A stretch of DNA of 64,000 nucleotides from an uncultured Erysipelotrichaceae bacterium. GTDB lineage: Bacteria > Bacillota_I > Bacilli_A > RF39 > UBA660. Positions within the stretch are counted from its first letter, which is position 1; every line of letters begins with the position of its first letter. The DNA is taken from the NCBI GenBank assembly GCA_902764545.1, contig CACWWC010000008.1, positions 9,191 to 73,190 on the forward strand. Direction: 5' to 3'. The notes under the pieces were generated by a model, which did no database searches, was not told the DNA's origin, and worked only from the letters and a program-made list of their open reading frames with translations. The position numbers and the translations under genes are program-made. Positions 3,761-28,296 of this stretch are shown piece by piece.

Positions 3761-3787
3761 AAAAGAATATAAGGGGGAGGTATAGAG

Positions 3788-4817: not shown

Positions 4818-6035
4818 GTGGATAATTCTTCTCAGAATGAACAAGCAGAAAAAAGAAGAATTCGCAAAATATGTTTATTAATTGTAATTATAGTCATCAC
4901 TACTGTTGTATTGATTACAGAAACATATGCATGGTTTGTTGGAATTACAACCGTAAATGTTGATCAGTTCACAGTGAGCGTATCAGGAGGAGAAGGATTA
5001 GAGTTCTCACTAAATGCAAGTTCTTGGACAAGTGGAACACTGGCTGTGACACAAAGTGGGGTAAAAAGCGCATATACAAACAATAAAAATAAATGGGAGA
5101 CAACCACAACATTAGATCCAATATCTACAAGTGGAGAAATAAAAAACCCAGGTGCATTAAAACTATTTGGAAAAGGCTCATTAGCATCAACTATGGGAGG
5201 TTATAAATTAATATCATCAGAACTTCCAAATGTCAGCAGCTCGACAATCTCGGAATTAGATGGTTATATTGCCTTTGATTTATTTATTAGAAATGGTAAT
5301 AAAGCTGCCTACATTACAGATTATAACGCAAATGACGATGAAGCAATATATTTAAGCAGAAATTCTAAGGTAGTAATAACTCCGTCAGGAACAAGTGGAG
5401 CAGGAAGCCCGGATTACGGTTTGGAAAATTCAGTTAGAGTTGCATTTGCTCAAATTGGAAGAATTGCAGCAAATGGTGCTACGGCAACAACAGCACAAGG
5501 CATTGTATGTAACCCTGGAACATCAAGTGGTGTGACAAGTTTATGCACAAACGTTGGAACGACGATATGGGAACCAAATGACACAGCTCATAAAGCAAAA
5601 CTCATAAATTATTATAATACAGCATGTAAAAACAAAACAGGTGCTACGAGCTATGGAAGTGGTGCATGTACAACAATTGGAACAGTAAATAATGGTACGG
5701 TAAGCAACTCCGTTTTTGTTCAAACTAACACAGTTCGTACTACAATAGCAGCAACAAATAATGTTGATATATATGATGGCTTGAATGGATATACCTCATC
5801 AATAGGTGATAACAAATTTCTAAAAGCAACAGATACATTTACAGATACAGACAAAAATGCTACGGGAGATGCAAGGCCAGAATTTTTCAAATTAGCAGCA
5901 AATAGTGTTACAAAAGTAAGAGTATATATATACCTAGAGGGACAAGACGTTGATAATTATGATTTAATTACAAAGGGGAAAAAAATAAATATTAAATTTG
6001 GATTTACAAAAGATAAATATGAAATTGGCAGTTGA
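4818..6035 (+). CDS. Expanded TasA/camelysin-like secreted protein with SipW-type signal peptide (paralog A1)
   Basis: GTG start after GGTGGTGAG, with no in-frame ATG before the TM helix. K/R-rich N-terminus and TM helix ending in TYAWF (compare G-T-x-A-Y/W-F in TasA/CalY signals). Paralog motifs YIAFDLFIRN, NSVRVAF, IWEPNDTAH, RVYIYLEGQDVDNYDL, KFGFTKDKYE. Confidence 0.65.
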   Translation: MDNSSQNEQAEKRRIRKICLLIVIIVITTVVLITETYAWFVGITTVNVDQFTVSVSGGEGLEFSLNASSWTSGTLAVTQSGVKSAYTNNKNKWETTTTLDPISTSGEIKNPGALKLFGKGSLASTMGGYKLISSELPNVSSSTISELDGYIAFDLFIRNGNKAAYITDYNANDDEAIYLSRNSKVVITPSGTSGAGSPDYGLENSVRVAFAQIGRIAANGATATTAQGIVCNPGTSSGVTSLCTNVGTTIWEPNDTAHKAKLINYYNTACKNKTGATSYGSGACTTIGTVNNGTVSNSVFVQTNTVRTTIAATNNVDIYDGLNGYTSSIGDNKFLKATDTFTDTDKNATGDARPEFFKLAANSVTKVRVYIYLEGQDVDNYDLITKGKKINIKFGFTKDKYEIGS

Positions 6036-6073
6036 AATATATAGCACAATATTATTATTAAGGTGGTGTAAAA

Positions 6074-7450
6074 ATGGAAAAGAAGGAAGTAACTAAAAAA
6101 AGGTATAATAGAAAGAAACGAAAAAGAGCAATTAAAAAAAGTAAAAAAGTTGTAATAGCAATGGGGCTAACAGCAATAGTACTTGTTGTTGCAACATATG
6201 CATGGTTCATTGGTATAACAACAGTAAATGTTAATCAATTTGAAGTTAATATAGTTACAACAGAAGGTTTGTCAATTTCGTTAGATGGTAAGCACTGGGA
6301 AACAGTTTTAAATGTTACAAAGGGAATTATTGAAGGAACAGACCCAATGGTAATTAATGGGTCAACTTCAGCAAATAAACATCTAAAAGCTGATGGTACA
6401 GACGGTGATTATGGTGAATATCCAGTTGCAAATGGAAACAATGACCATTGGGCAACTGCAGGTGATGATTCATCACATACAGGACTTGAGCCAGTTTCCT
6501 CATCAGGACAGTTAGATTCAACTTCATCACAAGCTAAATTCTATTCAAAAAGTACAATGACAGCTGAAAGAGGCGGATATAAGTTGGCTGCAGGTGATAT
6601 AACATCACCAACTGCAACAGGTTATATTGCTTTTGACATATTCATTAGAAATGCAACAGGATCTGCATATGAAGCGGCCTACAATAAAGACAATGATGAA
6701 GCATTATTTTTAACAGGTGGTTCAAACGTTACATATAATACATCAGGATCAAGTGCAGGAGATGGTATTCAAAATTCAGTACGTGTAGGTTTTTATTCTT
6801 TAGGCAGAGTTGCTGCAACTGGAACAACTGATGCCACAATACAAGGAATTAGTTGTTCAGCATCAACAGGAGTCACAAGTCTATGTAATCTTCAAGAAGG
6901 TGAAGCAGGATCACAAACAGCAGTACCAAGAGGATACAACTGGAATATCTGGGAGCCAAATGATACTGCTCATACAGATAAAGCGATAACTAGATTCAAC
7001 AATGCATGTATAAAAAGAAGTTCAACAGGAGAATATCAACTAACTGGGGATGACAATAAGTGTAAACCTATAGGAGAAGGTGCAAGTGCACAACAGCTTT
7101 CAGATAACACCTATATTAAAACGTTTACAATAAATGATACAATTTCAGCATCTGCAAACCCACCAGCTAATATATATGATGGACTAAATGGATATACAAA
7201 TCCAAAAATGTCATATATTCAAACTTTGACTGATACTGAAAATAGCGCTGAAGATACTAGAAACCCTCTTTTATATATCGCACCATCTAGTATTACAAAA
7301 ATTAGAGTATATATTTATTTAGAAGGACAAGATGTAGACAATTTTGATTTGGCAACGGTTTATCAAACATTGAGATTTGAATTTGGATTTACTAAGGATA
7401 GATATGAAGCAGCTGAAGAAGAAACACCAACCCCTACAACAGGAGAGTAA
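6074..7450 (+). CDS. Expanded TasA/camelysin-like secreted protein with SipW-type signal peptide (paralog A2)
   Basis: AAGGTGGTG RBS. ATYAWFIGITTVNVNQFEV, YIAFDIFIRN, NSVRVGF, IWEPNDTAH, RVYIYLEGQDVDNFDL, FEFGFTKDRYE. Acidic/Pro-Thr tail. Confidence 0.65.
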   Translation: MEKKEVTKKRYNRKKRKRAIKKSKKVVIAMGLTAIVLVVATYAWFIGITTVNVNQFEVNIVTTEGLSISLDGKHWETVLNVTKGIIEGTDPMVINGSTSANKHLKADGTDGDYGEYPVANGNNDHWATAGDDSSHTGLEPVSSSGQLDSTSSQAKFYSKSTMTAERGGYKLAAGDITSPTATGYIAFDIFIRNATGSAYEAAYNKDNDEALFLTGGSNVTYNTSGSSAGDGIQNSVRVGFYSLGRVAATGTTDATIQGISCSASTGVTSLCNLQEGEAGSQTAVPRGYNWNIWEPNDTAHTDKAITRFNNACIKRSSTGEYQLTGDDNKCKPIGEGASAQQLSDNTYIKTFTINDTISASANPPANIYDGLNGYTNPKMSYIQTLTDTENSAEDTRNPLLYIAPSSITKIRVYIYLEGQDVDNFDLATVYQTLRFEFGFTKDRYEAAEEETPTPTTGE

Positions 7451-7469
7451 GAGGAACATTATAATTTAG

Positions 7470-8501
7470 ATGACAAAGAAAAATAAAAAGAAAAAAGAAA
7501 GAAACAGTGTAAAATTCTACTTTATATTGTTTCTTATCCTTATTACAGGAGTAATACTTGTATATTCTACTTATGCTTGGTTTTCTTCTTCACTAAATGT
7601 TCAAATATACGGATTTAATGTAAGAGTAGATCACGACTCAGATTTGGCAATATCACTCGACGGATCTGATTGGCAACAAAGTATTAACATTACACAAAAT
7701 ACATTGGTTAATGAACTAAGCAAAGTATATCCAAATCACACAAATCGATGGTCAGAATATATGTCTACAGTATCTTCAATAGGTTTGTTAGATCAAGGAT
7801 ATAAATTTTCAATGTTTGAAAACAAAAGACCTTTAACAAAAAAGGGAGGACTGGCAAATAATAATTATATATATCCTAAATTAACTGAAGAAAACAAACC
7901 AGAATTAAATTCAACGTATTTTGCATTTGATATTTTTATAAGAAATAATACAAATTCACCGTATAGTGACAATCTATACATTAGAAACGAAAAAAAACTC
8001 TTTGTTCCAGAAAGCGAAGATGATTTATTTATATTAAACTCATTACGATTTGGAATGGTTTACGTAGGAACAGTAGGTAAAAATGCACCACTGAATGAAA
8101 TACAAAATATGGACTGTCTTTCAAATGGATGCAAGCAATTTATCTATGAACCAAGTACTACTCATACAGATGGAACAGTTGAATTATTAAAAACAAGAAA
8201 AATAGAAATTACAAACGATATGGAAGTACCAACATATGCTGTATACCATGAAGGAGATAAAATTAATCTATGGTCAGGAGTACATAATTCAAGAGTTCAA
8301 TTTGATGAAAATATTTTCGCATATCAAAATACTATAACAAACTTAGAACAACCAATATTTGAACTTCCATCTGGCATTTCAAAATATAGAATATATCTTT
8401 GGGTTGAAGGCTCAGATATTGATGTTATAAAAACAGAGTCTCCAGGATATAGATTAATATTTGGAATTGACTTTGAAAAAGACACAGCAGGATATAATTA
8501 A
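7470..8501 (+). CDS. Divergent TasA-like secreted protein with SipW-type signal peptide (paralog A3)
   Basis: STYAWFSSSLNVQIYGFNV, YFAFDIFIRNNTN, IYEPSTTHTDG, RIYLWVEGSDIDV, FGIDFEKD. Shorter and more divergent than A1/A2. Confidence 0.6.
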   Translation: MTKKNKKKKERNSVKFYFILFLILITGVILVYSTYAWFSSSLNVQIYGFNVRVDHDSDLAISLDGSDWQQSINITQNTLVNELSKVYPNHTNRWSEYMSTVSSIGLLDQGYKFSMFENKRPLTKKGGLANNNYIYPKLTEENKPELNSTYFAFDIFIRNNTNSPYSDNLYIRNEKKLFVPESEDDLFILNSLRFGMVYVGTVGKNAPLNEIQNMDCLSNGCKQFIYEPSTTHTDGTVELLKTRKIEITNDMEVPTYAVYHEGDKINLWSGVHNSRVQFDENIFAYQNTITNLEQPIFELPSGISKYRIYLWVEGSDIDVIKTESPGYRLIFGIDFEKDTAGYN

Positions 8502-8677: not shown

Positions 8678-10291
8678 ATGAATTTTAAGGAATATATAGA
8701 TAAAGATATTGAAGACAAAAAAAATTTATTAGAACTTCTTCCGATGAATACAGAAGCAAGAGTAAAAAAATATAAGGATACTATTGATAACATTATAAGA
8801 GTTTATCAGCCATCAATTGAAAGTACAAAAAAATATATAGATTATAAGTATAACAAACTTTATCCAACAAAAATAGATAGAACTCAGCAAATAGAACAAA
8901 TAAAAAGTAAAATAACTGTCTATAAAGAAAATTTGATTTCAACAAATCCAAATACAAGTTACTATGAAAGACTTGGCTTTGATATGCTAATATTTGAACT
9001 AGAACATTATTATAATTACACACTTCATGAAAATAATGATATAATTGTCAAAATTATTTCCAAATTCGAATTAGCATCAGTGAAAATATCTGCTGAAGAC
9101 TTTAAACTTAATATTTTTTCATATAATTATATGATTTATATATTTAAAAGCATAAGAGGAGAATTAATTAATACTGAAACTCTAAAGAAAATCTTTTGGA
9201 AATGCCCAAATGTATATGAAAATATAATTATTAGTTTTAGAATCTTAATAATAAAAAATCAAAAAAGATTTGAAAGTTATTTAAAAATATTTGAATCAAA
9301 AATATTAAGTCAATATAACTATAAAAGTAGAAATGAATTAATTCAAGCCTTATATAATGAAGAAATAAATAAAGAACAATTAGAAGAACAAGATGAAGCT
9401 GATATAGTATCTGATTTTATAAGTGGTGAATTAGACTTTAGTATTTATCAAAATACTATGAATAATCTATATGGCGAATTAGATTACTTTCTAATTAATC
9501 CAATAGATGTAAGCAATCAAGATTTACTTGCACAAACTCTAATAATTATAGATAACTTTTATCAAAACATTATGGAGTATCAAAAATATTCCACTAATGA
9601 AGTATTATTTGAAAATCTTAAAAATACATATAATAAAAATATATTTAACCTACAAGAAAAACAAATGAAAAAAGACTATAAAGCACAACTAAATAAAATT
9701 AATAAACTTCAGGCAAAGGCAAAAAAACAGTTTATAAATAAAATAATTAACGGAGAAAATATAGACCAAATACTAAACAAAGACGAATTCAATAAATGTA
9801 TTGAACAACAAAAAATGCTAAATGAAATATATATTGAATATTCAAATTACGACAAAATGTATTTTAATTTAATTCTAAAACAAAATATACATGAGAACTC
9901 TTTTATATCCAGTATTGTTGAGCTCATAGTGTCGTATCCGTTTTTCTCTAGATCAATTATAAAAAGTGTTTTTGAATTAGAAAATAATGAAGAAGTTACT
10001 GATAAATATAATGAAATATTTGATTTACAGTACAACAGGCATAGAAAATTGATAGATATGAAATCTATTTTTTCAAAGGAGAATTTTGAAAGACGATTGA
10101 TGGACTCCTATAGATTTGACAATCTTAATATTAATGAAACTACTTTTGAAGAAGATAATCAAACACTTGCGATTACAAATTATATAAAACTCAAAAATAA
10201 GCTAAAAATTTCAAAATTCCAACGTAGTCTTGATGAAATAGAATTTTTAATAAATATAAAGAAACTAAAGGACGAAGAAGAAAAAGTATAA
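8678..10291 (+). CDS. Cytoplasmic helical protein of unknown function (locus protein B)
   Basis: 537 aa, no signal peptide or TM helix, K/E/N-rich helical composition, no family motif recognised. Tightly packed between secreted-protein genes. Confidence 0.6.
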   Translation: MNFKEYIDKDIEDKKNLLELLPMNTEARVKKYKDTIDNIIRVYQPSIESTKKYIDYKYNKLYPTKIDRTQQIEQIKSKITVYKENLISTNPNTSYYERLGFDMLIFELEHYYNYTLHENNDIIVKIISKFELASVKISAEDFKLNIFSYNYMIYIFKSIRGELINTETLKKIFWKCPNVYENIIISFRILIIKNQKRFESYLKIFESKILSQYNYKSRNELIQALYNEEINKEQLEEQDEADIVSDFISGELDFSIYQNTMNNLYGELDYFLINPIDVSNQDLLAQTLIIIDNFYQNIMEYQKYSTNEVLFENLKNTYNKNIFNLQEKQMKKDYKAQLNKINKLQAKAKKQFINKIINGENIDQILNKDEFNKCIEQQKMLNEIYIEYSNYDKMYFNLILKQNIHENSFISSIVELIVSYPFFSRSIIKSVFELENNEEVTDKYNEIFDLQYNRHRKLIDMKSIFSKENFERRLMDSYRFDNLNINETTFEEDNQTLAITNYIKLKNKLKISKFQRSLDEIEFLINIKKLKDEEEKV

Positions 10292-13300: not shown

Positions 13301-13380
13301 GAGTTTATGACGTTGAGATATTTTTTCAGAATAATGGAAAAATACAAACAAGTGAAAACTTTAACATTTTAGTCAAATAA
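10306..13380 (+). CDS. 1024-aa secreted protein with SipW-type-like signal and GLUG-motif (beta-helix-like) repeat region
   Basis: N-terminal TM helix ending PSYARN. Repeats NAGIIGTVVN / NIGGIVGRY / NVAGGIIGKS / SGGVLGYL (about 10.98-11.34 kb) resemble GLUG motifs. Long Ig-like/beta-rich remainder. Confidence 0.6.
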   Translation: MMSKNIKRLTIFNIIIISIISVLGIVMLFNPSYARNLANEYYSTWDGETVSTTLSGSGTSSDPYVISNGADLAFFYKNCTNSNWNDRYYVLDNDIYLNEGYFDYIDDGNFKYHLNNKTYYIAKDKYYTTKDDLNSETNGQNIHVLKNRKYDPFYGTFDGNGHAIIGMFFNDSNADSNHFISHNYGVIQNVKFFNSIIISKKNSSLIGDIYESGTTKNIVFNGTIKNYAVGNAGIIGTVVNKGNISNIAMHGRVEGYGNIGGIVGRYVTPNSGLSSILNISNSYNTAEVISDNVAGGIIGKSENTNYLNLTNVFNTGNILGEYSGGVLGYLTSTSVANSINFTNSFSSNADNFIGYIPISATIHASNNYYTNANTKAVGNYSTAVSGIEYKHYMNLFATNNLSSMGYLQYDENQVSSGYIWKYRLYQSPYLYFDDVTKPDVTINYNTNTWTPSNNSRTISIITANSTGNISVSVSDDSDIAKIEYYIKNKYDTTTENIENLDLKLYTDDTTFTVEPNTCQTIYIKATDIYGNSSYAFSDMIFYDAYVLDFSEGINHNSLGIKSNTIFKYFTKNSEINIRGKHSVNTDSYIYNADNKEYMYFYYIPPTGTVMTLYDYTKNKIYKYTVNNTSDFSYNYSGVSLYRLDLSVFKSIYDSSIAYDNTVYGHYDSVKKKIDEDFEISFDFSKCSFPNSYVLKGYIRSYSTTNQTVVMSYRSSIFEFELMTDQEAEYSLEIIPDSTNAIDNISNTISMDLVLTKQLMNTQNSTYTHEDTFIYDPSFFNADYTIVLKVVDENNNVIKSTSGNNISYQIKNGASFNNKTDNNAYMKVNIPARSYSWYNMFGYRGMVSFKIKVLNNRYIDIANGTYQLNVYLQDLSGTTIATAQTPLTVSKAIQINNASYNFAITDKNDRIIEAGETAAGNNYMGFNYTLSLNNPTSSSLLVKTYKIEEVDDEVVKTEVNPSTIFNSTYNFPVLDNYYLLQINHHNLDNVLNIKSDTPSGVYDVEIFFQNNGKIQTSENFNILVK

Positions 13381-13394
13381 TGAAAGGAGTAAAA

Positions 13395-13946
13395 ATGAAA
13401 AACAAAATAAAATATGCACTACTCCTATTAATTGTTTTACTTTTATTTTATACTATTAAAGGAAGTTATGCCTTATACAACAGCATAGCTAATGGCAAAA
13501 TAAAAGACGAAAATAATTCTCAAGAAATAATAGCAAAATTTATTGTAAATAATCAATTGTCGGATAGCATTAATTTCGAAATAAGCGATTTATCTCCGGG
13601 AGACACAAAAACTTTTAATTTCAGTGTATCAAATACCATTAATACCACTCATTCAGATGTTTCTATAAAATATAAAATCAATATACACTCATATAGTTTG
13701 CCACTAACATATATTTTGACTCAAGACCAAAATACTAACAATTTACTAACATGTTCTGGAGAAGTAGATATTTCATGTGAAAGTAGTGAGCTAATCATGA
13801 ATTATAATGACAATACAATTAAAAACTTCACACTAAAAGTTACACTGCCAGAAGCAAATACAAATGAAGAGGCATTTGACTACACATATGCAAATAATAT
13901 TGATATTGTAACATTAACAATTGATTCATGGCAGATTATTAGCTAA
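13395..13946 (+). CDS. Small TasA/camelysin-size secreted protein with SipW-type-like signal (protein D)
   Basis: ATG 13395 lies 5 nt after AAGGAG. The track ORF starts at 13380, overlapping the upstream stop. TM helix ends GSYALYN. ISDLSPGDTKTFNFSVSN and C-terminal TLTIDSWQ resemble TasA strands (LKPGD...N, ...FEATQ; recalled from memory). Confidence 0.6.
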   Translation: MKNKIKYALLLLIVLLLFYTIKGSYALYNSIANGKIKDENNSQEIIAKFIVNNQLSDSINFEISDLSPGDTKTFNFSVSNTINTTHSDVSIKYKINIHSYSLPLTYILTQDQNTNNLLTCSGEVDISCESSELIMNYNDNTIKNFTLKVTLPEANTNEEAFDYTYANNIDIVTLTIDSWQIIS

Positions 13947-13960
13947 AGGATGTGATAGAA

Positions 13961-15907: not shown

Positions 15908-17863
15908 ATGAAAAAAATACTATTTTCAAAACAAAGTATTATTATATCTATGACTATTTACCTAATGATGATATGTTTTTTTTCAATACTAGTTATTAGC
16001 AAAAATAACTATGGTGTAACACAATTTGGAAATAGATTTTTTATAAGTGCATCATCTAATAATAAGCTATATGGATATAAAGAAGGAGATCTAATTGAAA
16101 TAGAAAAAAAGAACATTAGTGAACTGCATGATGGTGATAATGTTTATATCTATAAAATGCAAGAAAATGAAAAAAAAATAGATATAATCAATTCCCAGGT
16201 ACAACAAGTACATGCTGAATATCCAAACAGTTATGTAATATTAAAAAATGACAACTACCGCTGGGAAGAAAAGTATATTGTTGGGATATCAAGAAATATA
16301 TACCCTAAAATGGGATACGTAATGACGGCTCTAACATCAAGTTGGGTATTTTTTATATTATTTTTTATCCCTGCAGTAATCATTTTTATATATGAAATCT
16401 ACACTCTATTTAATGAATTAAAAAAACTTAAAAAAAACAATATTAGTATAGAAAAGGAAGATGAAAAAAAAGAAATCAATCAACAAGAAAACAAAATACT
16501 AAATAATAACACTCAACCTATTAACCAACGGTTTAATATTGAGTCTCAAAAGTTAATAAGTGAAAAAGAAAACAATATTGGTGATAATATCATGGACGAA
16601 CCAATTATTATTATCCCCAATATAAAAGAAAAAGGTGACTATATAACAGATGAAAACATTGAAGATGAGCTAAGTACTATTACAATTAGTGATGAATTAA
16701 ATAAAGAAAATGAAAGTGAACCAGAAGAAAAAACTAATAATAATAAAACTGATAATGAAGATAGTCAAGAAGTGAATTCAGATGAATCTAGTAATAACAT
16801 AAAAACAGAAAATGAGCCAATAGTTATAGGAAAAGGTATTAAAAATTTTATTTTAAAAATACTAGAATTAAAAAAGTATGAAATATTTGATATTTTATCA
16901 ATTATTAATAATGCGAAAAATCAAACGTTTCCACAATCGGTATTAAAAAATATTATTTCAACATATGTAATGGATAAATATATTCAGCCAATTGATTATA
17001 ATGAAGAAGATTTTAAAAATAAAAATAAAATTCTTATAGAAAAAATAGAAAAATATGCATCTAAAAAAAGAAATCTCGATTCAACTCAAAAAAAAGAGCT
17101 CACAGAAACGTTATTATTCTATAATAAACTAAAAGAGGATTATAGTAACTTAAATAAAGAAATTACATCATTTATTACATTTGAATCAGAAGATGATAAA
17201 AAAATAATTGTAGACTGTATAACAGAAAAAGGTAAAAGCTACATAAAATTAAGAAAAGCGTTTACAGAAAGAATTTCAGCATCAAAAATGTTTCAACTTA
17301 TCGTAAGTGACACGATAATAAAAAAAGTCTATAATACACAGTTAAAGTCAAATATTAAATTTAGTAAAATATTTAGTGAATATGTTATTGATAAATCGTA
17401 TAGCCAATCAGTTGTACTAGAAAATTTAGAAGAAGTTCTTTTGAAATTGGTAGGATCTATGCTTATAAAGGAATTATTTAATGGTGATTATGAAAAACAG
17501 TACATTATTCACTTTAATGAAACACTATATAAGAAGGAAAGAAAAATTAACAATTTTATAGATAATTTCAATGATCCTTTTTCTCAGAAAAAAATATTAA
17601 TATTAATTAATGCTGATAATATAAAAAAGAATAAAAATATTTTGGATAAATTAAAAAATCAAGGATTTAATTTTGTCATTCAGCTACCAAAGAAGGATCT
17701 TATGAATGTTGAATTTGACAGAAAAATTCTAAACATAGCAGAATACATAATAATTATTGGTAATTTAACCGAAGGAGAAAAAAAGACATTAATACCCGTA
17801 AGTATGATTCCAAAGGTATATTGTATTAATGAGGCCATTGACAGTGAGGTGATTAAAGCATGA
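15908..17863 (+). CDS. Bitopic membrane protein: SipW-like ectodomain lacking the canonical catalytic motifs, plus ~470-aa cytoplasmic domain (protein G)
   Basis: TM1, then FGNRFF...EGDLIEIEKK...GDNVYIY...NDNYRWEEKYIVG aligns by eye to the SipW-like J/M proteins but lacks the GSM and THR contexts. TM2, acidic linker, then a large domain of unknown function. Stop overlaps the next start (ATGA). Confidence 0.6.
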   Translation: MKKILFSKQSIIISMTIYLMMICFFSILVISKNNYGVTQFGNRFFISASSNNKLYGYKEGDLIEIEKKNISELHDGDNVYIYKMQENEKKIDIINSQVQQVHAEYPNSYVILKNDNYRWEEKYIVGISRNIYPKMGYVMTALTSSWVFFILFFIPAVIIFIYEIYTLFNELKKLKKNNISIEKEDEKKEINQQENKILNNNTQPINQRFNIESQKLISEKENNIGDNIMDEPIIIIPNIKEKGDYITDENIEDELSTITISDELNKENESEPEEKTNNNKTDNEDSQEVNSDESSNNIKTENEPIVIGKGIKNFILKILELKKYEIFDILSIINNAKNQTFPQSVLKNIISTYVMDKYIQPIDYNEEDFKNKNKILIEKIEKYASKKRNLDSTQKKELTETLLFYNKLKEDYSNLNKEITSFITFESEDDKKIIVDCITEKGKSYIKLRKAFTERISASKMFQLIVSDTIIKKVYNTQLKSNIKFSKIFSEYVIDKSYSQSVVLENLEEVLLKLVGSMLIKELFNGDYEKQYIIHFNETLYKKERKINNFIDNFNDPFSQKKILILINADNIKKNKNILDKLKNQGFNFVIQLPKKDLMNVEFDRKILNIAEYIIIIGNLTEGEKKTLIPVSMIPKVYCINEAIDSEVIKA

Positions 17864-19419
17864 CAATTTTTAGGTTTCTATATGAAATATTATCTGTACT
17901 CTTTCAAGGTGTAATATACATATTTAAAGGATTATTTAATGGAATAAAAACAATTTTTTCTTTTGGAGACTATAAGAAAATCATTGATTTCTATTCAAAA
18001 GAATTAAATATAAGCGAATGGATACTAGTAACAATCTTAATTGTGGTATTAATTTTGATAGTAGGTTTAATTGCTTATATATTATATTACTTATTAAGAA
18101 AGTATATAATATTGAAAAAGAAATTGGTAAACCAAGAGTCACTGCTTGAAGAAATAAATACATTAAATGATCAGGTTGAAGGACTAGTTAAAGAAAATGA
18201 AAAAATAGCAGAAATATATTCTGGAATTACACCAAATTCTAATAATGGAAAGATAGGAGGCGCTAATGTTAATCCTATAAATCCAAATGAGCCACAAGTT
18301 GAAGGAGAAGAAGTAGAACAAGAAGAAGAGGTTGCAGATGAAAACATAAGATTCCCACAATTGTATAGAATTGATAAATTAAATAAAAAGACAAAAATAG
18401 TAAACTACAACAATACACAAACGTTGCCAGAATTGGTAGACGACTTTAGATGCTTTTCTGCAAGTCAATTACATCTATACTATAATGTAGAAATGATTCG
18501 TGTATTCTTCGGTGGACTAGCATGTGGTAAAATGTTAATATTCCAAGGTATTTCTGGTACAGGAAAAACATCCCTTGCATATGCATGGAGCAAATTTAAT
18601 AAATCGGACCCATGTATAGCATCAGTGCAACCTTCATGGCGTGATAGAACCGATTTCTTTGGCTACATGAACGAATTTACGAAAAGATTTAATGAAACAG
18701 GGGCTTTAGTTGAATTATATAGTGCATTATACGATGATAGATGTCACACAATTGTACTAGATGAAATGAATCTGGCACGTGTTGAGTACTATTTCGCAGA
18801 AGTACTATCAATACTTGAAATGCCAAATAGAGCAGAATGGATTGTTAGCCTTGTAACTAACACTGTTGAAAATGATCCAGTTAAACTAAATAATGGTAAA
18901 ATACGATTAAATGGAAATGTATGGTACATAGGAACAATCAATAACGATGATTCAACATTTGCAGTTACTGATAAAGTTTATGATAGAGCAATGCCTATTG
19001 ATATTAATACCAAAATCGATCCATTTGATTGTAGAAACCAAGAGGCCCTAGATTTAAATTCGGTTTATCTTGAATCATTATTTCACAAGGCATGTGAAGA
19101 TTTTCCAATATCTGAAAAAAGTCTTAAAAGCTTAAGTACAGTCGATAGTTTTATGATAACCAACTTTAAAATATCTTTTGGTAATCGTATCATGAAACAA
19201 TTAAACATATTTGTACCGGTATATGTTGCATGTGGAGGAGATGAAGTTGGAGGAATTGACTATTTCGTTGCAAAAAAAATATTACGTAAACTGGAACAAC
19301 AGAATATAGCATATATTCGTGACGCAATTGATCCATTCATAGAAGAATTGAATAGATTATTTGGAAAAGACAAAATGAAAGAATGTATTGAATACGTTAG
19401 TATGTTAAAGAAAGGTTAA
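17860..19419 (+). CDS. Membrane-anchored McrB-like (AAA_5/dynein-related) AAA+ ATPase (protein H)
   Basis: Hydrophobic N-terminus plus TM helix WILVTILIVVLILIVGLIAYILYYLL, coiled coil, acidic linker. Walker A GISGTGKTS (18547-18573). Walker B and downstream IVLDEMNLARVEYYFAEVLSILE (from 18751), a signature I recall from McrB-family ATPases. Confidence 0.7.
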   Translation: MTIFRFLYEILSVLFQGVIYIFKGLFNGIKTIFSFGDYKKIIDFYSKELNISEWILVTILIVVLILIVGLIAYILYYLLRKYIILKKKLVNQESLLEEINTLNDQVEGLVKENEKIAEIYSGITPNSNNGKIGGANVNPINPNEPQVEGEEVEQEEEVADENIRFPQLYRIDKLNKKTKIVNYNNTQTLPELVDDFRCFSASQLHLYYNVEMIRVFFGGLACGKMLIFQGISGTGKTSLAYAWSKFNKSDPCIASVQPSWRDRTDFFGYMNEFTKRFNETGALVELYSALYDDRCHTIVLDEMNLARVEYYFAEVLSILEMPNRAEWIVSLVTNTVENDPVKLNNGKIRLNGNVWYIGTINNDDSTFAVTDKVYDRAMPIDINTKIDPFDCRNQEALDLNSVYLESLFHKACEDFPISEKSLKSLSTVDSFMITNFKISFGNRIMKQLNIFVPVYVACGGDEVGGIDYFVAKKILRKLEQQNIAYIRDAIDPFIEELNRLFGKDKMKECIEYVSMLKKG

Positions 19420-19433
19420 AATAGGTAAATAAT

Positions 19434-20672
19434 ATGGAAAACTATTCATTAAAATATGAAAATCAATCTGATTTGTTTAATGATAAGTTCTTTAAAAATA
19501 TAAATCAAAGAGAACTTCTATCATCAGATTATACAGGATTAATAGTTAGCTTTGATTGGTTTGATTTAATCTTTGGAACTATACCATATGTAAACAATAT
19601 ATTTAATGATTTAAAATCATTCCTAAAGGAAGAAGAAGAAATACTTAAAATAGAAAAGGTTCGTAAAGTTGGACCGCCAACGTTCAAACATCTAGCTAAA
19701 CATACAAACTTTATTCAAGAATATGATGAAGAAAAAAATAAAATAACACCATCTAAACTTCTAAACACGTATAAGGAAGATACATTCAATACCTATGAAA
19801 ATCGTTTTATTTGTACTCTTGTTGATGAGCTGGCAATATTTTTGGAAGATATAAAGAATCAATTAACAGCACATGATACACATAATGAAGATTCATTTAC
19901 GTTTAATAGTAAAACCAAAGCAGATGGTGAGGAGATTTCATTCAATTTTATGCTAGATGCAAAAACAGACAGGTCGTCAGGCCTTGAAGAATTTGAGGCA
20001 AAATCAGAAATTGTAATGAATAATGTTAAGTCTTGGAGAGACAGTTTACTATATAAAACTCTAAAAAAAGAAAAAGCACCTGCAGTATCAGATCCAATTA
20101 AAAGAACTAATGTAATTTTAAAAAATCCAAACTTTCAAATGGCAGCTAATTTATGGGACTTTATTCACAACTTTAGTATAGATGCACATACCATAGAAAA
20201 CAATAGAGATGTATACAATCAATTACCAACAGTTTTCAATGATAAAGTTAATAATACTTTTTTATGTTTTTACTACATTATGAAATATACATGTGCAAAG
20301 AATAATTATCAAAAAGATATATATAACAAAGAATTAAATAAACTATTTTTGAAAGATATAAAAGAGAATATAAGATCACTTGCTAATGGAGATGATGCGT
20401 TAACAAAAGAAGATCTTGTAAATTTAGTAACATCAGAATATGATATCGTTAAAAAAGAAAAAGTAGTAGATTATTCAATGGTTGCAAATAAAATTAACAG
20501 TAGCTCAAAGAAATTTATGGATAAAATGGATTCAAGTTTCTTCCAAATAGGTGGAGATGGAGCAACACTTAATATGACACTCGACGAAGAAGAAGATAAT
20601 AAAGAAGAGAAAATCATAGTTGATGATATTGATAAAACATCAAGCAACTCAGGAGATGAAGAAAATGATTAA
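19434..20672 (+). CDS. Cytoplasmic partner protein, possibly DUF2357/McrC-like (protein I)
   Basis: No TM helix. NTYENRFICTLVDEL resembles the conserved core of DUF2357 McrC-like partners (memory-based). ADGEEISFNFMLDAK (LDAK at 19953-19964) could be a D...D-x-K nuclease remnant. Acidic tail. 14 nt after H, and overlaps J by 8 nt. Confidence 0.45.
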   Translation: MENYSLKYENQSDLFNDKFFKNINQRELLSSDYTGLIVSFDWFDLIFGTIPYVNNIFNDLKSFLKEEEEILKIEKVRKVGPPTFKHLAKHTNFIQEYDEEKNKITPSKLLNTYKEDTFNTYENRFICTLVDELAIFLEDIKNQLTAHDTHNEDSFTFNSKTKADGEEISFNFMLDAKTDRSSGLEEFEAKSEIVMNNVKSWRDSLLYKTLKKEKAPAVSDPIKRTNVILKNPNFQMAANLWDFIHNFSIDAHTIENNRDVYNQLPTVFNDKVNNTFLCFYYIMKYTCAKNNYQKDIYNKELNKLFLKDIKENIRSLANGDDALTKEDLVNLVTSEYDIVKKEKVVDYSMVANKINSSSKKFMDKMDSSFFQIGGDGATLNMTLDEEEDNKEEKIIVDDIDKTSSNSGDEEND

Positions 20673-21444
20673 AAATATTTTAAAAATAATAATGAAAATA
20701 TTAAAAATAGCATTAATTATAATAATTGTTTTATTCGCATCATTTGTATTACTACAACGTTTTTCCAACAATAACACATCCATATTTGGATATAGAATGT
20801 TTGCAGTTGTAACAGGTTCAATGGAACCAGTATATAGTGTTGGCGATGTTATACTATGTAAGGAAGTTGATACTAATAAATTAAAAGTTGGAGATGATGT
20901 TACATATTTAGGTAAAGAAGGCACTTTTAAAGATAAAGTCATTACACATAGATTAAAAAACATCACAGAAAAAGATGGAAAAAAGATATTTTACACACAG
21001 GGAGTTGCAACTAACAATATCGATCCACCTATAGAAGCAAGTCAGATATATGGTAAGGTATCAAGAAAATTATTAATTTTATCAGCATTTCACAGTTATT
21101 CTAGTACTAGCATTGGTTTTTTCCTATGTGTAATAATACCTATAATGTTATTAGTTGGAACCGAAGTAGTACAAACGATGCTTGAAAAACATGAAGAACA
21201 GCATGAAAAACATAATGAAATACAACAAAACAGCCAACAAAACAATTATACAACAGAGCAATTAAAACAAGAATTAGAATCGCTACAACAAATGGTAGAT
21301 GTTCAAAATGAACAATATGAAGCGAGGATAGCAAATAATGCACAAATGCAACCTCAAACTGTAGGAGTAAATAATATGAATGTGCAAGCACAGCCTCAAG
21401 CAGTAGGAGTAAATAGCACAGCCTCAAGCAGTAGGAGTAAATAA
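20665..21444 (+). CDS. SipW-like (ER/archaeal-type, S26B) signal peptidase I with frameshift-truncated Q/P-rich repeat tail (protein J)
   Basis: ATG 20665 lies 9 nt after AGGAG (track start 20620 sits inside the upstream gene). TM helix, VVTGSMEPVYSVGD (Ser box), ITHRL (His box), TQGVATNNID, second TM helix. Tail of 14-aa QPQxxGVNN repeats ends prematurely at a 28-bp duplication. Confidence 0.75.
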   Translation: MIKNILKIIMKILKIALIIIIVLFASFVLLQRFSNNNTSIFGYRMFAVVTGSMEPVYSVGDVILCKEVDTNKLKVGDDVTYLGKEGTFKDKVITHRLKNITEKDGKKIFYTQGVATNNIDPPIEASQIYGKVSRKLLILSAFHSYSSTSIGFFLCVIIPIMLLVGTEVVQTMLEKHEEQHEKHNEIQQNSQQNNYTTEQLKQELESLQQMVDVQNEQYEARIANNAQMQPQTVGVNNMNVQAQPQAVGVNSTASSSRSK

Positions 21445-24196: not shown

Positions 24197-24248
24197 AATA
24201 ATCAATTTAGCTGGTAAATAATACTATAAATAATAAGAAGGTGGTTTG

Positions 24249-24959
24249 ATGGCAAAGAAAATAGTTAATCTGATATTGAACATTTCAATTGTTTGCGCTT
24301 CAATAATTTTATTTGTTACCATCTTTTTAGATATTCAAACGACAGTATTAAAAAAAACATATAAATCATTTTTTGGATATTCTCTTTTTGAAATAAAAAC
24401 AGGAAGCATGAGCAAAACGATTAAAATAGGAGACTGGATATTAGTAAAAAATACCAAAGATGTTGACCTAAATGATATCATAACATATGAACAAAATGGT
24501 AATTTTATAACACATAGAGTTATACAAAAATATCAAGGAAACATTACTACGAAGGGGGATTCCAATAATACTATAGATAAACCTATAACTAATACGCAGG
24601 TTGTTGGCAAAGTAATCAAGGTATTACCAAAATTTGGTATAATAAAAAGTGTACTTTTAAATAGTGAAGTATTGATTCCATTTATTATTACAATATTTAT
24701 TATTTGTTTAATAATTGATGATAAAAATAATAAAAATGAATCATATATAAATAGATTTAAATCTTTATTTAAAAAAAGAGATAAAAATATAAATAATAGA
24801 ATTAAGGACATACCAATTCCTCAGAAAAATGATGAATCAATGACAACTATTTTAAGTAAAGTAGAAATTGATAATAATAATGAGGTTTATAGCAGATTGA
24901 AGGAAACAAAAAATGAAGAAGAGGATGATGATATTCCAAAAATAATCAAAATCATATGA
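24249..24959 (+). CDS. SipW-like (ER/archaeal-type, S26B) signal peptidase I, canonical motifs (protein M)
   Basis: ATG 24249 after GAAGGTGG (track TTG 24246). TM helix, IKTGSMSKTIKIGD (Ser box), ITHRVI (His box), TTKGDSNNTIDKP (GDxN..D box), C-terminal TM helix and K/N/E-rich tail. Confidence 0.8.
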   Translation: MAKKIVNLILNISIVCASIILFVTIFLDIQTTVLKKTYKSFFGYSLFEIKTGSMSKTIKIGDWILVKNTKDVDLNDIITYEQNGNFITHRVIQKYQGNITTKGDSNNTIDKPITNTQVVGKVIKVLPKFGIIKSVLLNSEVLIPFIITIFIICLIIDDKNNKNESYINRFKSLFKKRDKNINNRIKDIPIPQKNDESMTTILSKVEIDNNNEVYSRLKETKNEEEDDDIPKIIKII

Positions 24960-24978: not shown

Positions 24979-26175
24979 ATGAATAAAAAAGGAAAAAAAA
25001 GAATGCGAAGATTAATGATTTTATTCATAATGATTCTACTCACTTTATCTATATTGTTAGTTGGAACATATGCATGGTTTATTGGATTAAGAACAGTAGA
25101 TGTTTCAGAATTTAGCGTTACCATAACAGGAGTTGATGGGTTAGAAATATCTCTAGATGGTGAAAATTGGAAGATAGAAGGTGAGCCTTTACATATCAAT
25201 TCAAGTACAATCATTAATACAACATCCACAACGGATGATCATGCATATTCAGGGCATAAAAATATATGGCCAAGTGATGGGTTAGTACCGTTATCAACCA
25301 ATGGATTAATGGATGCGACAAACAGTAGATTAATACTATATGAAAAGACCGGATTGCCACCATCACCAGGAGGCTATGGAATAATATCAAACAGACTAGA
25401 TAACACTGGAACAGACGAAGCAGACGGATATGTCGCATTTGACTTGTTTCTTAAAAATGGAAAAGGTTCATCATACAATGAAACGTATGATCCAAATGCA
25501 GATGAAGATATTTATTTGACAAGCAACTCATATGCTAACAGTACACCAAGTGGTAGTAGTGAAGAAGCTTATGGAATTGCTAACTCAATAAGGATAGGTT
25601 TTTTCCAGATAGGACGAATAAAATCAAGCGGATATAGTTCATCAATATTAACTGGAATAACATGTAGTGGAGGGGAACATATTACAACAACTTGTACCAA
25701 TAGTACAAATTTAGACGAAAGAAGGGCCAAAACATGGAACATATGGGAGCCAAATGATTCAACACACGAAAGTAATTTAGTTCAACTTTTCAATAGAATA
25801 TGTAAGAAAAGAAGTGCAACGGGAGCCTACCTAGAAACCTCTTGTGATACTCTGACAGCTACAAGTAGTAATTTAACCTATGCAATAAATCAACCAATTA
25901 CTTCAACAGATCAAGTAGATGTTTATGATGGAAATAATGGGTACACTTCAGCAAAACTCACAGAAATGAATACATATAAAACAAATGACGCTGCAAATTA
26001 TGCAAGTGATAAAAAACAACTATTAAAAATTGCTGGAAATAGTGTAACAAAAATTAGAGTATACATATGGTTAGAAGGGCAAGACGTTGATAACTATGAT
26101 TTAATTGTCAATGATGCAAATGTGGCAATTAAATTTGGCTTTACAAAAGATAAATATGGTATTTCAACTACGTAA
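24979..26175 (+). CDS. Expanded TasA/camelysin-like secreted protein with SipW-type signal peptide (paralog A4)
   Basis: GTYAWFIGLRTVDVSEFSV, YVAFDLFLKNGKG, NSIRIGF, IWEPNDSTH, RVYIWLEGQDVDNYDL, KFGFTKDKYG. Confidence 0.65.
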   Translation: MNKKGKKRMRRLMILFIMILLTLSILLVGTYAWFIGLRTVDVSEFSVTITGVDGLEISLDGENWKIEGEPLHINSSTIINTTSTTDDHAYSGHKNIWPSDGLVPLSTNGLMDATNSRLILYEKTGLPPSPGGYGIISNRLDNTGTDEADGYVAFDLFLKNGKGSSYNETYDPNADEDIYLTSNSYANSTPSGSSEEAYGIANSIRIGFFQIGRIKSSGYSSSILTGITCSGGEHITTTCTNSTNLDERRAKTWNIWEPNDSTHESNLVQLFNRICKKRSATGAYLETSCDTLTATSSNLTYAINQPITSTDQVDVYDGNNGYTSAKLTEMNTYKTNDAANYASDKKQLLKIAGNSVTKIRVYIWLEGQDVDNYDLIVNDANVAIKFGFTKDKYGISTT

Positions 26176-26191
26176 ATAGGATGTGTATAAT

Positions 26192-26890
26192 ATGAATGGT
26201 GATATAAAAACGACTGCGGCGAAGTTACGGAAAAGGAAAAGAAACTTTAAAATAGCCTGTGTCTTACTAGTTATACTTATTATATTAATAGTTGCAGTAT
26301 ATGCAGCAGTTAGTTTTATATATAATGGATACTATTTTTCTATAACATTAGACAAAAATTTATATCTTAAGAATAAAGTTGTTATATATGATGATCCAAA
26401 ATACAAGGTATATAGAAGTGTTATGCAGGTTGAGTCATTAGACTTTTTTGATAATATATCAGAAAAGTGGCTGCCTGATAGTTTAGATAATGCAGGAGGT
26501 AGTCATAATGGGGAAAGTTATCTTGCATACACGTTCTTTATTGAGAATATGGGAGATGATGTTGTTGACTATTATGATGAATTAATTATCGATGATGTTG
26601 TAAAAAATGTAGACGAAGCGATACGTTTTAAGGTATACTATGATGGGAAGGATAAATTATATGCAAAAAAAAGCATTGATGGTACCCCAGAAAAAGGAAC
26701 AATTGCCTTTAAAGATGAAAATACTGTTTTAAGGCAGAAAGTAACAAATTTTGCTCCAGGTGAAATACATAGATATACAGTAGTAATGTGGGTTGAAGGA
26801 AATGATCTTGAATGTACTAATAATATTTTAGGTGGGGAATTAAAAGTACATTACGATTTTAAATCATATCATAAAGAAGGTAGGAAGTGA
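26192..26890 (+). CDS. Small membrane-anchored or secreted TasA-like accessory protein (protein O)
   Basis: ATG 26192 lies 10 nt after TAGGA (track GTG 26183). TM helix with VYAAVSF. YTFFIENMGDDVVDYY and RYTVVMWVEGNDLEC share the paralog strands. The stop overlaps the track GTG of the next gene. Confidence 0.55.
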   Translation: MNGDIKTTAAKLRKRKRNFKIACVLLVILIILIVAVYAAVSFIYNGYYFSITLDKNLYLKNKVVIYDDPKYKVYRSVMQVESLDFFDNISEKWLPDSLDNAGGSHNGESYLAYTFFIENMGDDVVDYYDELIIDDVVKNVDEAIRFKVYYDGKDKLYAKKSIDGTPEKGTIAFKDENTVLRQKVTNFAPGEIHRYTVVMWVEGNDLECTNNILGGELKVHYDFKSYHKEGRK

Positions 26891-26895
26891 TTAAT

Positions 26896-28296
26896 ATGTA
26901 TAATAATAATGATGAAGATATAGTAGAAGTGGAATATACTGAAGAAGATATTAAAAGAAAAAATAGAAGAGTATTTAAGATGATTACAGTTTCAGGACTT
27001 ACGTTAGTCGTACTTATAGTCGCAACATATGCATGGTTTATAGGTATAACAACAGTTAAAGTAAATGCATTTCAGGTTAATGTAGAGACATTTAAAGGAT
27101 TACAAATTTCATTTGACGCATCATCTTGGAGTGATAGTGTATCAATAACTGGAGATACAACATCTGATAATGCATATAATGCAACAAATAGAAGTGTTAA
27201 TAACCATTGGTTAGATTATAAAAACCCAAGTGATACAACAGAGGGATATAAAGGACTAGTACCAATATCTAGTGCAGGAGAATTTTCAACAACAGGGCAT
27301 TTAAAATTATTTTCTAATGCAAGTATCAACGCTATCACAGGTGGATATAGAATAAGAACCGAAAAAATATTAAATGAAGCATCTGAACAAGCTCAAGGAT
27401 TTGATGGAACAACAACATCACCAGAAAAAGGGCAATATATAACTTTTGACTTATATTTAAAAAATACTACTAACACTCAGGGAACATTACCAAATGCATC
27501 AGCGTATACGCCAGACGAAACAGAAGCAGTATATTTAACTACGAACTCATCAGTTACACTTCATGCAGAAGAAGGTAAAAATGATGACGACGGGTTAGAA
27601 AATTCTTTAAGAGTTGGATTTTATCAGGTTGCGTATGCTCCATTGGGGACTACTGAAGCTAAACTTAGAACAATGAACTGTACATCAGTTGCAGCTGATA
27701 GTATTGTAGGAACATGTACAACATCTGGAACAACAGGTAATAGAGGTTCCGCATGGAATATCTGGGAACCAAATGATATGACTCATGCTGATAAAGCAAT
27801 AAGTAACTTTAATCGTCTATGTAGATTGAGAACAGGAGCGGATACATATACTGCACCTGTTGCAGATGATTTATCAACAAAATGTAAAGCAGATGGAACA
27901 AATTTATTTGCTAATAATCAATATGTAACTACATATGGAGTAAGAGCAGCAATTGGAAATTCAGATAAAGTTAATATGTATGATGGAATCAATACATATA
28001 TGACAACAGTAGGAACTGATAAATTCCTTAACGCAGTTACAACATTAAGAGAATCACAAAATGTAATAAATACATCAGATCTATATGCAACAGATAGGTC
28101 ATCATTAATTAAGCTAGAGCCAAATAGTATTACAAAAATTAGAGTTTATGTATGGTTAGAAGGACAAGATCTTGATAACCTAGACTATGTTGGAGAAACA
28201 CAAAACTTACTTATTAATATGGGATTCACTAAAGATATATATGAAGAAGATGTTAACGCAACACCATCTCCTACAACAACTACAGAAGAGCCATAA
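26896..28296 (+). CDS. Expanded TasA/camelysin-like secreted protein with SipW-type signal peptide (paralog A5)
   Basis: ATG 26896 lies 8 nt after AGGAAG (track GTG 26887). ATYAWFIGITTVKVNAFQV, YITFDLYLKNTTN, NSLRVGF, IWEPNDMTH, RVYVWLEGQDLDNLDY, MGFTKDIYE. Pro/Thr tail. Confidence 0.65.
   Translation: MYNNNDEDIVEVEYTEEDIKRKNRRVFKMITVSGLTLVVLIVATYAWFIGITTVKVNAFQVNVETFKGLQISFDASSWSDSVSITGDTTSDNAYNATNRSVNNHWLDYKNPSDTTEGYKGLVPISSAGEFSTTGHLKLFSNASINAITGGYRIRTEKILNEASEQAQGFDGTTTSPEKGQYITFDLYLKNTTNTQGTLPNASAYTPDETEAVYLTTNSSVTLHAEEGKNDDDGLENSLRVGFYQVAYAPLGTTEAKLRTMNCTSVAADSIVGTCTTSGTTGNRGSAWNIWEPNDMTHADKAISNFNRLCRLRTGADTYTAPVADDLSTKCKADGTNLFANNQYVTTYGVRAAIGNSDKVNMYDGINTYMTTVGTDKFLNAVTTLRESQNVINTSDLYATDRSSLIKLEPNSITKIRVYVWLEGQDLDNLDYVGETQNLLINMGFTKDIYEEDVNATPSPTTTTEEP

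Follow-up and report, generated by a model that had tools for sequence, protein, structure and literature searches.

In a 64,000-nucleotide stretch of the genome of an uncultured Erysipelotrichaceae bacterium (assembly GCA_902764545.1, contig CACWWC010000008.1, positions 9,191 to 73,190), hereafter called the window, five related genes (A1 to A5) and a smaller sixth one (O) lie in a run of same-strand genes which spans approximately 1.8 kb to 28.3 kb. The window is AT-rich, with about 28% G+C. We found that A1-A5, O and two orphan genes on other contigs of this genome are members of a beta-rich protein superfamily which had not been described before, and we propose that CoCoPALM loci, in which a GTPase derived from a restriction-enzyme motor lies beside signal peptidases, have this A/O superfamily as their main exported cargo and structural subunit. 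The reading that we favor for the A proteins, to which we give about even chances, is that they are processed by signal peptidase and serve as structural subunits of a polymeric structure at the cell surface. The six genes are as follows:

4818..6035, + strand: A1, long-form A-family protein of 405 amino acids (aa), defined by its open reading frame (ORF), the alignment, an AlphaFold2 (AF2) model and a positional ortholog in L011, a rumen Erysipelotrichaceae metagenome-assembled genome (MAG)
6074..7450, + strand: A2, long-form A-family protein of 458 aa with a Thr/Pro-rich C-terminal tail; 70% identity to its L011 ortholog
7470..8501, + strand: A3, short-form A-family protein of 343 aa, the single-copy type; last in the A run, with gene B usually next
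24979..26175, + strand: A4, long-form A-family protein of 398 aa, from ORF, alignment and tree
26896..28296, + strand: A5, long-form A-family protein with a Thr/Pro-rich tail, 466 aa from the ATG at 26896; the ORF opens with a GTG at 26887 (469 aa)
26183..26890, + strand: O, reduced distant A homolog of 235 aa, from hhalign, synteny, and motif and Cys counts

For A5 the ATG, which is also the start given in the sequence-only reading, is the more likely one, because of the spacing from the ribosome-binding site.

The A/O superfamily

The sequence-only reading had described A1-A5 as an expanded paralog family with several shared blocks. An end-to-end MAFFT alignment bears this out, with 25-43% identity to A1 and 44 invariant columns, and profiles of the long forms and of the A3-type forms match each other with an hhalign probability of 100% (E=1.7e-56). 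The homology reaches well beyond the signal peptide. All of the blocks quoted in that reading, namely TYAWF, [FIV][AT]FD[LI][FY][IL][RK]N, NS[VIL]R[VIF][AG][FM], I[WY]EP[NS]..H and R[VI]Y..EG[QS]D.D, are present in each of the five proteins; the [ST] which it had placed ahead of TYAWF is not a shared feature, the preceding residue being E, A, S, G or A. Its count of five copies is correct for the locus, while the total for the 1.57 Mb genome is seven, including two complete orphan long-form A genes which lie outside any CoCoPALM locus, one at 3551-4735 of contig C21 and the other on contig C9 (L086:9257-10444, minus strand). In a tree A4 groups with these two orphans (A6 and A7), and A5 is a divergent long form.

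Motifs and cysteines were counted in 248 non-redundant A-family members from 74 related loci. Four sites are located here in A1:

4923..4937, + strand: TYAWF, where the N-terminal hydrophobic helix ends; signal peptidase is predicted to cut it as T-Y-A / W-F; from motif conservation
5508..5546, + strand: Cys loop 1, C231-C243, CNPGTSSGVTSLC; from pair co-presence
5625..5669, + strand: Cys loop 2, C270-C284, missing from A3-type forms; from pair co-presence
5937..5954, + strand: acidic motif EGQDVD, with which the penultimate core strand ends, the signature of the A/O superfamily; from conservation

A TYAWF-type motif ends the hydrophobic helix in 244 of the 248 proteins, and Y37, A38, W39 and F40 (A1 numbering) are retained in 235-246 of them; [ST]-[YF]-A-like motifs were also seen in other exported proteins of the locus. 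Residues E374, G375, D377 and D379 of the acidic motif are kept in 244-247 members, with variants of the form EGxDxEC in O and EGWDxDxF in the A-like proteins of compact loci (see below). The invariant polar set of the family comprises D154, N159, N204, R207, E252, H258, K366, R368, E374, D377 and D379. Most variation falls within the loops that the Cys pairs bound and within a few other segments; the core strands, the N-terminus that follows the predicted cleavage site and the acidic motif are nearly fixed.

The cysteines are either paired or absent. C231 and C243 are both present in 242/248 members and both missing from 6/248, C270 and C284 are both present in 180/248 and both missing from 68/248, and in neither pair does one partner ever occur alone. 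Loop 1 measures 9-25 residues in the long forms and 3-4 in the A3-type forms, loop 2 measures 12-30 residues, and the stretches between the Cys partners are the most variable parts of the proteins in both length and sequence. This is the pattern expected of two independent loop-closing disulfides, and it is consistent with the presence of two such disulfides in the long A forms, as had been suggested on first inspection. The pairing reported then for A1, A2, A4 and A5 extends strictly over the family; A3 had been omitted, yet it keeps the first pair alone, closing a short loop (CLSNGC).

AF2 models of full-length A1 (predicted local distance difference test (pLDDT) 86, predicted template modeling score (pTM) 0.84) and of mature A3 (pLDDT 85, pTM 0.88) are mostly beta and place the conserved blocks on core strands. 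The new N-terminus that cleavage would create, W-F-x-x-x-x-x-V-x-V, is disordered or of low confidence in both monomer models, yet it is nearly invariant.

The recurrence of the last block in protein O, also pointed out in the earlier reading, proved to reflect a wider relationship, the O family matching the A families with hhalign probabilities of up to 95-97% over five colinear blocks (ISLDG; YxAFDxFxxNxG; NSxRxx; PTYA; and ITKxRVYxWxEGxDxD followed by the last strand). Against the A3-type forms a local alignment gives a probability of 52% (E=1.4e-4) and a global one 93.7%; against the minimal A-like proteins the values are 95.1% (E=3e-8) and 97.4%, respectively. O has approximately 190 ectodomain residues and possesses neither the Cys loops nor the EPN..H block. 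A TYAWF-like motif was found in 1/61 O proteins, compared with 244/248 A proteins; O therefore probably keeps its N-terminal helix as an uncleaved membrane anchor. Exactly one Cys is present in 59/61 O ectodomains, located directly after the acidic signature within E-G-x-D-x-E-C. A Cys is found at the same place in minimal A proteins (EGQDVDCED in L005-L010), and A1-A5 of the window have N or V there. This residue could form an intermolecular disulfide or act as a metal ligand.

More than 2,388 relatives of the A family were found in a word-indexed search, and an exhaustive profile search gave 2,412 clusters at 50% identity (E<=1e-3), 389 of which have E<=1e-30. Where they are named by the source they are called 'hypothetical protein'. 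A1-A5 and O had no match in scans of Pfam, NCBIfam, PADLOC or PHROGs, nor did PDB sequence searches with two A-family profiles give one. A mobile-element origin was considered and rejected, since tblastn returned no relative in plasmid or phage records. All of the relatives compared are from MAGs. The carriers are uncultured bacteria of the gut and rumen; their labels are Erysipelotrichaceae, Bacilli, 'Mollicutes' or 'Tenericutes', and their hosts humans, goats, buffalo, deer, rabbit and chicken. When the class was sampled evenly, 28/399 genomes had an A-family match, with full-length matches concentrated in the window's own family and one other. About a fifth of the genomes of the same genus are without the A family.

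A1, A2 and A3 each have a positional ortholog in L011 which is closer than any paralog of the same genome. The identities to L011 are 59-63% for A1, 70% for A2 and 72% for A3, compared with 63% for B, 50% for D, 34% for E and 28% for C. With A orthologs at 59-73% overall and C and E at 28-34%, the A genes are therefore among the best conserved of the locus. The paralogs are too diverged for an analysis of the ratio of nonsynonymous to synonymous substitution rates (dN/dS), as had been suggested, and for the closest orthologs a gene-wide value of ~0.13-0.18 was obtained, which is a rough ratio only since dS is saturated (1.2-2.6). Gene conversion or cassette variation among the A paralogs was rejected: the longest exact word that they share is 22 nt, and there is therefore no sign of cassette-type recombination. 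Antigenic diversification, one of the two explanations offered for the multiple copies, is thus weakly supported at best, the paralogs being old, the dN/dS low as given above, and traces of gene conversion not found. A universal alpha/beta split of the two long A genes was likewise discarded: the nearest neighbor keeps its position in 56/62 cases, but the distance distributions overlap.

A members from elsewhere carry a variety of C-terminal domains, including Bact_surface_Ig-like, Big_3, LRR_5, InlB B-repeat, ALK/LTK glycine-rich and DUF6273. These appended domains suggest that the A C-terminus is exposed and may be used for display. The C21 orphan is followed by a 134-aa ORF which resembles the DUF6273 end of K449, and A-DUF6273 fusions occur elsewhere (P0114, P0145). 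In the window, Thr/Pro-rich C-terminal tails are found in A2 (TPTPTTGE, 7420-7447) and A5 (TPSPTTTTEEP, 28261-28293) and are absent from A1, A3 and A4; they are possible linker or O-glycosylation segments.

The CoCoPALM locus

Under the name CoCoPALM, Bell et al. 2024 (PMC11090510) described a clade of McrB-like GTPases to which a transmembrane and coiled-coil segment resembling FtsB is fused. A role in pilus assembly was inferred from the accompanying peptidases in a single paragraph, with analysis deferred to a later publication, and no exported subunit was described; no follow-up was found in the searchable literature. The A/O superfamily would supply the exported subunit which that account is without. 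The window locus has the features that define CoCoPALM, namely an McrB-like GTPase with an N-terminal transmembrane/coiled-coil segment, a DUF2357 McrC-like partner and signal-peptidase genes:

8678..10291, + strand: B, signal-less helical protein; next after the A3-type gene in 47/54 loci
13380..13946, + strand: D, TasA-like small protein; the D family matches a TasA/CalY alignment at 95.7%, E=9.6e-9 (hhalign)
17860..19419, + strand: H, membrane-anchored McrB-like GTPase, the CoCoPALM core; NCBIfam McrB at 1.4e-6, PADLOC PDC-M26A at 1e-30
19434..20672, + strand: McrC-like partner (DUF2357); PF09823 at 2.3e-13
20620..21444, + strand: J, SipW-type (archaeal/ER-type) signal peptidase I; TIGR02228 at 3.5e-25, above the cut-off
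24246..24959, + strand: M, SipW-type signal peptidase I, directly upstream of A4; TIGR02228 at 4.2e-17, above the cut-off

Two further peptidase-like paralogs are present in this locus, and SipW-type peptidases are also present in the related loci.

Over the 74 related loci the gene order is O, long A, one A3-type, B, C, D, E, peptidase-like, SipW, McrB-like, McrC-like, SipW, K, F. Copy numbers were taken from the 54 loci which contain O, an A3-type gene and B. O and the A3-type gene are single-copy in all 54, and a long A gene always precedes the latter; long A copies number between 1 and 6 per locus, most often 2 (38/54). Distinct structural roles, the other explanation that the sequence-only reading had offered for the multiple copies, fit this synteny. 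Between the A genes no terminator was found in a promoter/terminator scan, the counts of which were no higher than in shuffled sequences; the scan therefore points to no 'major' subunit.

The association with the GTPase is close. Of 61 related genomes, 29 have both an A gene and an McrB-like gene and 30 have neither; one has A without the GTPase and one the GTPase without A (Fisher p=4e-15). Most genomes of the same genus have a minimal O-A-B module with one A protein of ~335 aa without Cys pairs. In two other families of the class we found compact loci (L098, G273:C1:1030001-1040000; L099, G511:C5:3001-12000) made up of an O-like gene, two A-like genes (303-322 aa), SipW and an McrB-like gene, with two GGDEF-EAL genes ahead. 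Their A-like proteins have neither the EPN..H block nor the Cys pairs and keep YAWF, SLDG..W, FxFDLxF, NAxRVxF and E-G-W-D-x-D; they are homologous to the A3-type (100%) and long forms (99.9%) by hhalign. The stretches fetched for these two loci showed no genes for the TasA-like D, E and F or for the large C protein, and an McrC-like partner was not confirmed there. Because the A/O superfamily occurs in the minimal, compact and expanded forms alike, it is the one predicted exported cargo that is constant over every locus form examined, from compact to expanded.

A number of other features of these loci were observed. Two locus types, expanded with long A genes and minimal O-A-B, occur within one genus. 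At 59% identity, the McrB-like protein of the window is closer to that of G042, from a different family, than to those of its own genus (51-57%), which hints at exchange of the whole locus. Locus L096 (G024:C8), from a genome of the same genus, is otherwise intact, but at 5440-6670 two ORFs and in-frame stops take the place of a single long-form A gene, which is a probable pseudogene. A GGDEF protein is encoded at 33582-34577 of the window, 5 kb past A5, and the compact loci are also preceded by cyclic di-GMP (GGDEF-EAL) genes. Directly upstream of the A genes (1849-4645) are genes for a thioester-domain LPXTG-type adhesin, a sortase and a 285-aa protein with multiple transmembrane segments; since the same layout was seen in a distant MAG (L078), the link to the A genes may go beyond chance.

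A proposed assembly and its alternatives

In the scheme that we infer for export, the cleavage site, the disulfides, polymerization and the division of roles, Sec would export each A protein by way of its long N-terminal signal helix, and a SipW-type peptidase of the locus would cut after T-Y-A, both the motif and the peptidases being present. The new N-terminus (W-F-x-x-x-x-x-V-x-V) and the conserved core strands would then join the subunits into a filament or lattice. By analogy, the N-terminal strand might be donated to the next subunit as in TasA, in which residues 28-38, just after the cleavage site, form the donor strand (Boehning et al. 2022, PMC9674648). A cation could be held at an interface by the invariant E-G-x-D-x-D with which the long penultimate strand ends, as in archaeal cannulae. 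The long A forms would be the bulk subunits, with their two hypervariable Cys-closed loops exposed and adhesin domains tolerated at the C-terminus; the single A3-type protein, with its short loops, would be a fixed specialist, perhaps an adaptor or terminator; and the single O may be a membrane-proximal base or nucleator, by analogy with TapA. B and the McrB/McrC-like GTPase pair would act on the cytoplasmic side. The fixed copy numbers of O and A3 beside the variable number of long A genes suggest a division of labor.

More tentatively, and with prospects of being right well below even, one may picture the A/O proteins as a structurally unprecedented class of Gram-positive surface-filament subunit, in which the conserved N-terminal strand left by cleavage and an acidic Ca2+-type interface join the subunits, O forms a membrane-anchored base, and the membrane-embedded, McrBC-derived GTPase drives or gates assembly. 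If true, this would be a new kind of machinery for pili, specific to uncultured gut and rumen Bacilli with small genomes.

Several results weigh against a role of the A proteins as polymer subunits. Foldseek searches of the PDB with both models gave no pilin or fiber fold match (best E 0.38 and 0.11, template modeling (TM) score <=0.18), and the weak neighbors were generic beta-sandwiches (sialidase carbohydrate-binding-module-like domains, capsid jelly rolls, adhesin domains), which fit a lectin or adhesin equally. The mature A3 model had no match in BFVD, and PDB and BFVD together gave none with E<0.01 (TM <=0.23). TIGR04088, the model for SipW-cognate signal peptides, found A2 only (residues 27-56, the correct position), at 9.6 bits against a cut-off of 19 and E=1.1, and nothing in the other A proteins. 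Lastly, genes for DsbA-like (PF13462), DsbB (PF02600) and VKOR (PF07884) proteins were not found in the genome of this anaerobe, which is 93.5% complete; the disulfides are therefore putative. Seven exported A proteins with strictly paired cysteines thus share a genome with no recognizable DsbA, DsbB or VKOR.

The same structural neighbors would suit an alternative in which the A proteins act as monomers, either secreted or attached to the surface, in the manner of lectin-like adhesins or as enzymes; the SipW/McrBC-like machinery would process or export them, and the paralogs would differ in ligand specificity through their variable loops. Among the neighbors are carbohydrate-binding and adhesin sandwiches (sialidase carbohydrate-binding-module-like and GH123 N-domains, ClfB, Sgo0707), the invariant polar set could form a ligand or metal site, and variable loops with appended adhesin domains are appropriate to binding proteins. 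However, these Foldseek matches are non-significant (E>0.1, TM<0.2) and no catalytic family was detected in the Pfam and NCBIfam scans. The N-terminus is strongly conserved right past the predicted cut, which would be unusual in a soluble lectin, and one O plus one A3 beside a variable set of long A proteins resembles an assembly of defined parts. We regard the monomeric role as unlikely.

A two-dimensional coat, that is, an S-layer-like lattice or sheath in which the paralogs provide heterogeneity, appears very improbable to us. It would account for seven A copies in a 1.57 Mb genome and for subunits of 300-470 aa, which are large for a pilin. Acidic Ca2+-type motifs are common in S-layer lattices. 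Cannulae of the TasA superfamily form tubular two-dimensional sheets by strand donation and Ca2+ binding (bioRxiv 10.1101/2024.12.30.630787). Set against this, the Pfam and NCBIfam scans of the A proteins found no SLH, CWB2 or other wall-binding module, and the patchy distribution within the genus, about a fifth of the genomes having no A gene, would be odd for an essential coat.

Comparison with TasA and other surface polymers

The sequence-only reading had taken A1-A5 for TasA/CalY proteins with large insertions. As TasA/CalY fiber subunits they would assemble by exchange of N-terminal donor strands in the TasA jelly-roll. There are grounds for comparison: T-Y-A-W-F resembles the T-W-A-A-F junction of TasA and the T-F-A-Y-F junction of CalY, and the locus encodes SipW-type peptidases. 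In the TasA system, which also comprises TapA and SipW (PMC9674648), Gram-positive exported proteins are again encoded with a dedicated SipW-type peptidase in the operon; in both, a T-aromatic-A / aromatic-F junction is followed by a conserved segment; and the minor partner for nucleation or anchoring, TapA there, would be O here by analogy.

The identification itself failed. PF12389 (Peptidase_M73) did not match A1-A5 at E<=0.1. In searches for TasA relatives in 151 genomes of the class and 401 of the phylum, PF12389 gave 7 weak N-terminal matches and then none; since this was too little, TasA itself was taken as a database query, the Bacillus subtilis sequence (identical to PDB chain 8aur_A) being used to collect TasA/CalY proteins, 45 of which were aligned. 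In hhalign comparisons with this alignment the A3-type family scored 0.3%, a 46-sequence long-form (A2) alignment 0.2% and the 'mini' A proteins 4.8%. Protein D is sub-threshold for PF12389 (16 bits, compared with 22.5), and its family reached 95.7% in the same hhalign test, which is therefore able to detect TasA relatives in this locus. Neither 5of1 nor 8aur, the TasA structures, was in the top 50 Foldseek PDB matches of the A1 or A3 model, none of which had E<0.1, and, as noted above, the PDB sequence searches gave nothing. Membership of the TasA family was accordingly rejected on profile-profile tests with a working positive control, and we attach very little probability to the A proteins being TasA/CalY subunits.

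What likeness remains is limited to the N-terminal signal helix, the junction T-Y-A-W-F and, perhaps, the first strand. The N-terminal ~50-60 columns of the A profiles align weakly with the D family at a probability of 35-58% (hhalign), and two TasA-superfamily fibers appear at noise level in the A1 Foldseek list (CanA, 9hdi, E 2.5; AbpA, 7ueg, E 4.7); both speak for a TasA relationship. Our conclusion is that the A proteins and TasA-like proteins have a kind of export signal in common, without a likeness of fold that these tools detect, and that the TasA-like protein of the locus is, judging by its profile, D rather than A. Protein E (13952-15019) shares the N-terminal domain of D (95.6%) and adds a type I dockerin. 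Beyond the lack of detectable sequence or fold homology, the A proteins differ from TasA and CalY in size (300-470 aa, compared with ~260 aa), in their Cys-closed loops and EGxDxD signature, in being present in 2-7 copies and in their tie to an McrBC-derived GTPase, which TasA operons do not have.

The AbpA bundling pili (PMC9245690) and CanA cannulae (bioRxiv 10.1101/2024.12.30.630787) of archaea are chaperone-free beta-sandwich polymers joined by a donor strand at the N-terminus, and in cannulae interface-bound Ca2+ reinforces the joints (bioRxiv 10.1101/2024.12.30.630787). By analogy these Ca2+ joints are a plausible model for the EGxDxD site of the A proteins, in which Ca2+ binding is a putative feature; the Foldseek matches to the archaeal proteins, however, are at noise level, with TM ~0.2.

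Type IV pilins combine a conserved scaffold with a hypervariable, Cys-held surface loop (the D-region) and occur as several paralogs per genome. The A proteins are like them in design only, having a Cys-closed variable loop on a conserved scaffold. In contrast to type IV pilins they have no class III signal peptide and no N-terminal alpha-helical spine, and their conserved motif sits after the hydrophobic helix rather than before it. No prepilin peptidase and no PilB/PilT ATPases were detected among the locus genes scanned. Features of sortase-assembled pilins were also not found in A1-A5, which have neither an LPXTG-type sorting signal nor a C-terminal transmembrane segment and end in soluble or Thr/Pro-rich sequence; only the unrelated thioester protein at 1849-3141 carries an anchor.

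Within the literature that could be searched, we found no earlier description of the A/O superfamily, of its sub-types or of the fixed gene order. CoCoPALM was named in 2024 for a restriction-enzyme motor beside signal peptidases, and its constant cargo, with more than 2,400 clusters, is now identified. The sub-types (long, A3-type, minimal and anchored O), together with the gene order, provide a testable parts list for the 'pilus assembly' label, and a 'TasA family' label on the A proteins would spread an annotation error. The family is carried by uncultured Bacilli with small genomes which are abundant in the guts of humans, ruminants, rabbits and poultry, and the surface structures of such bacteria probably serve to attach them to hosts, particles or partner cells.

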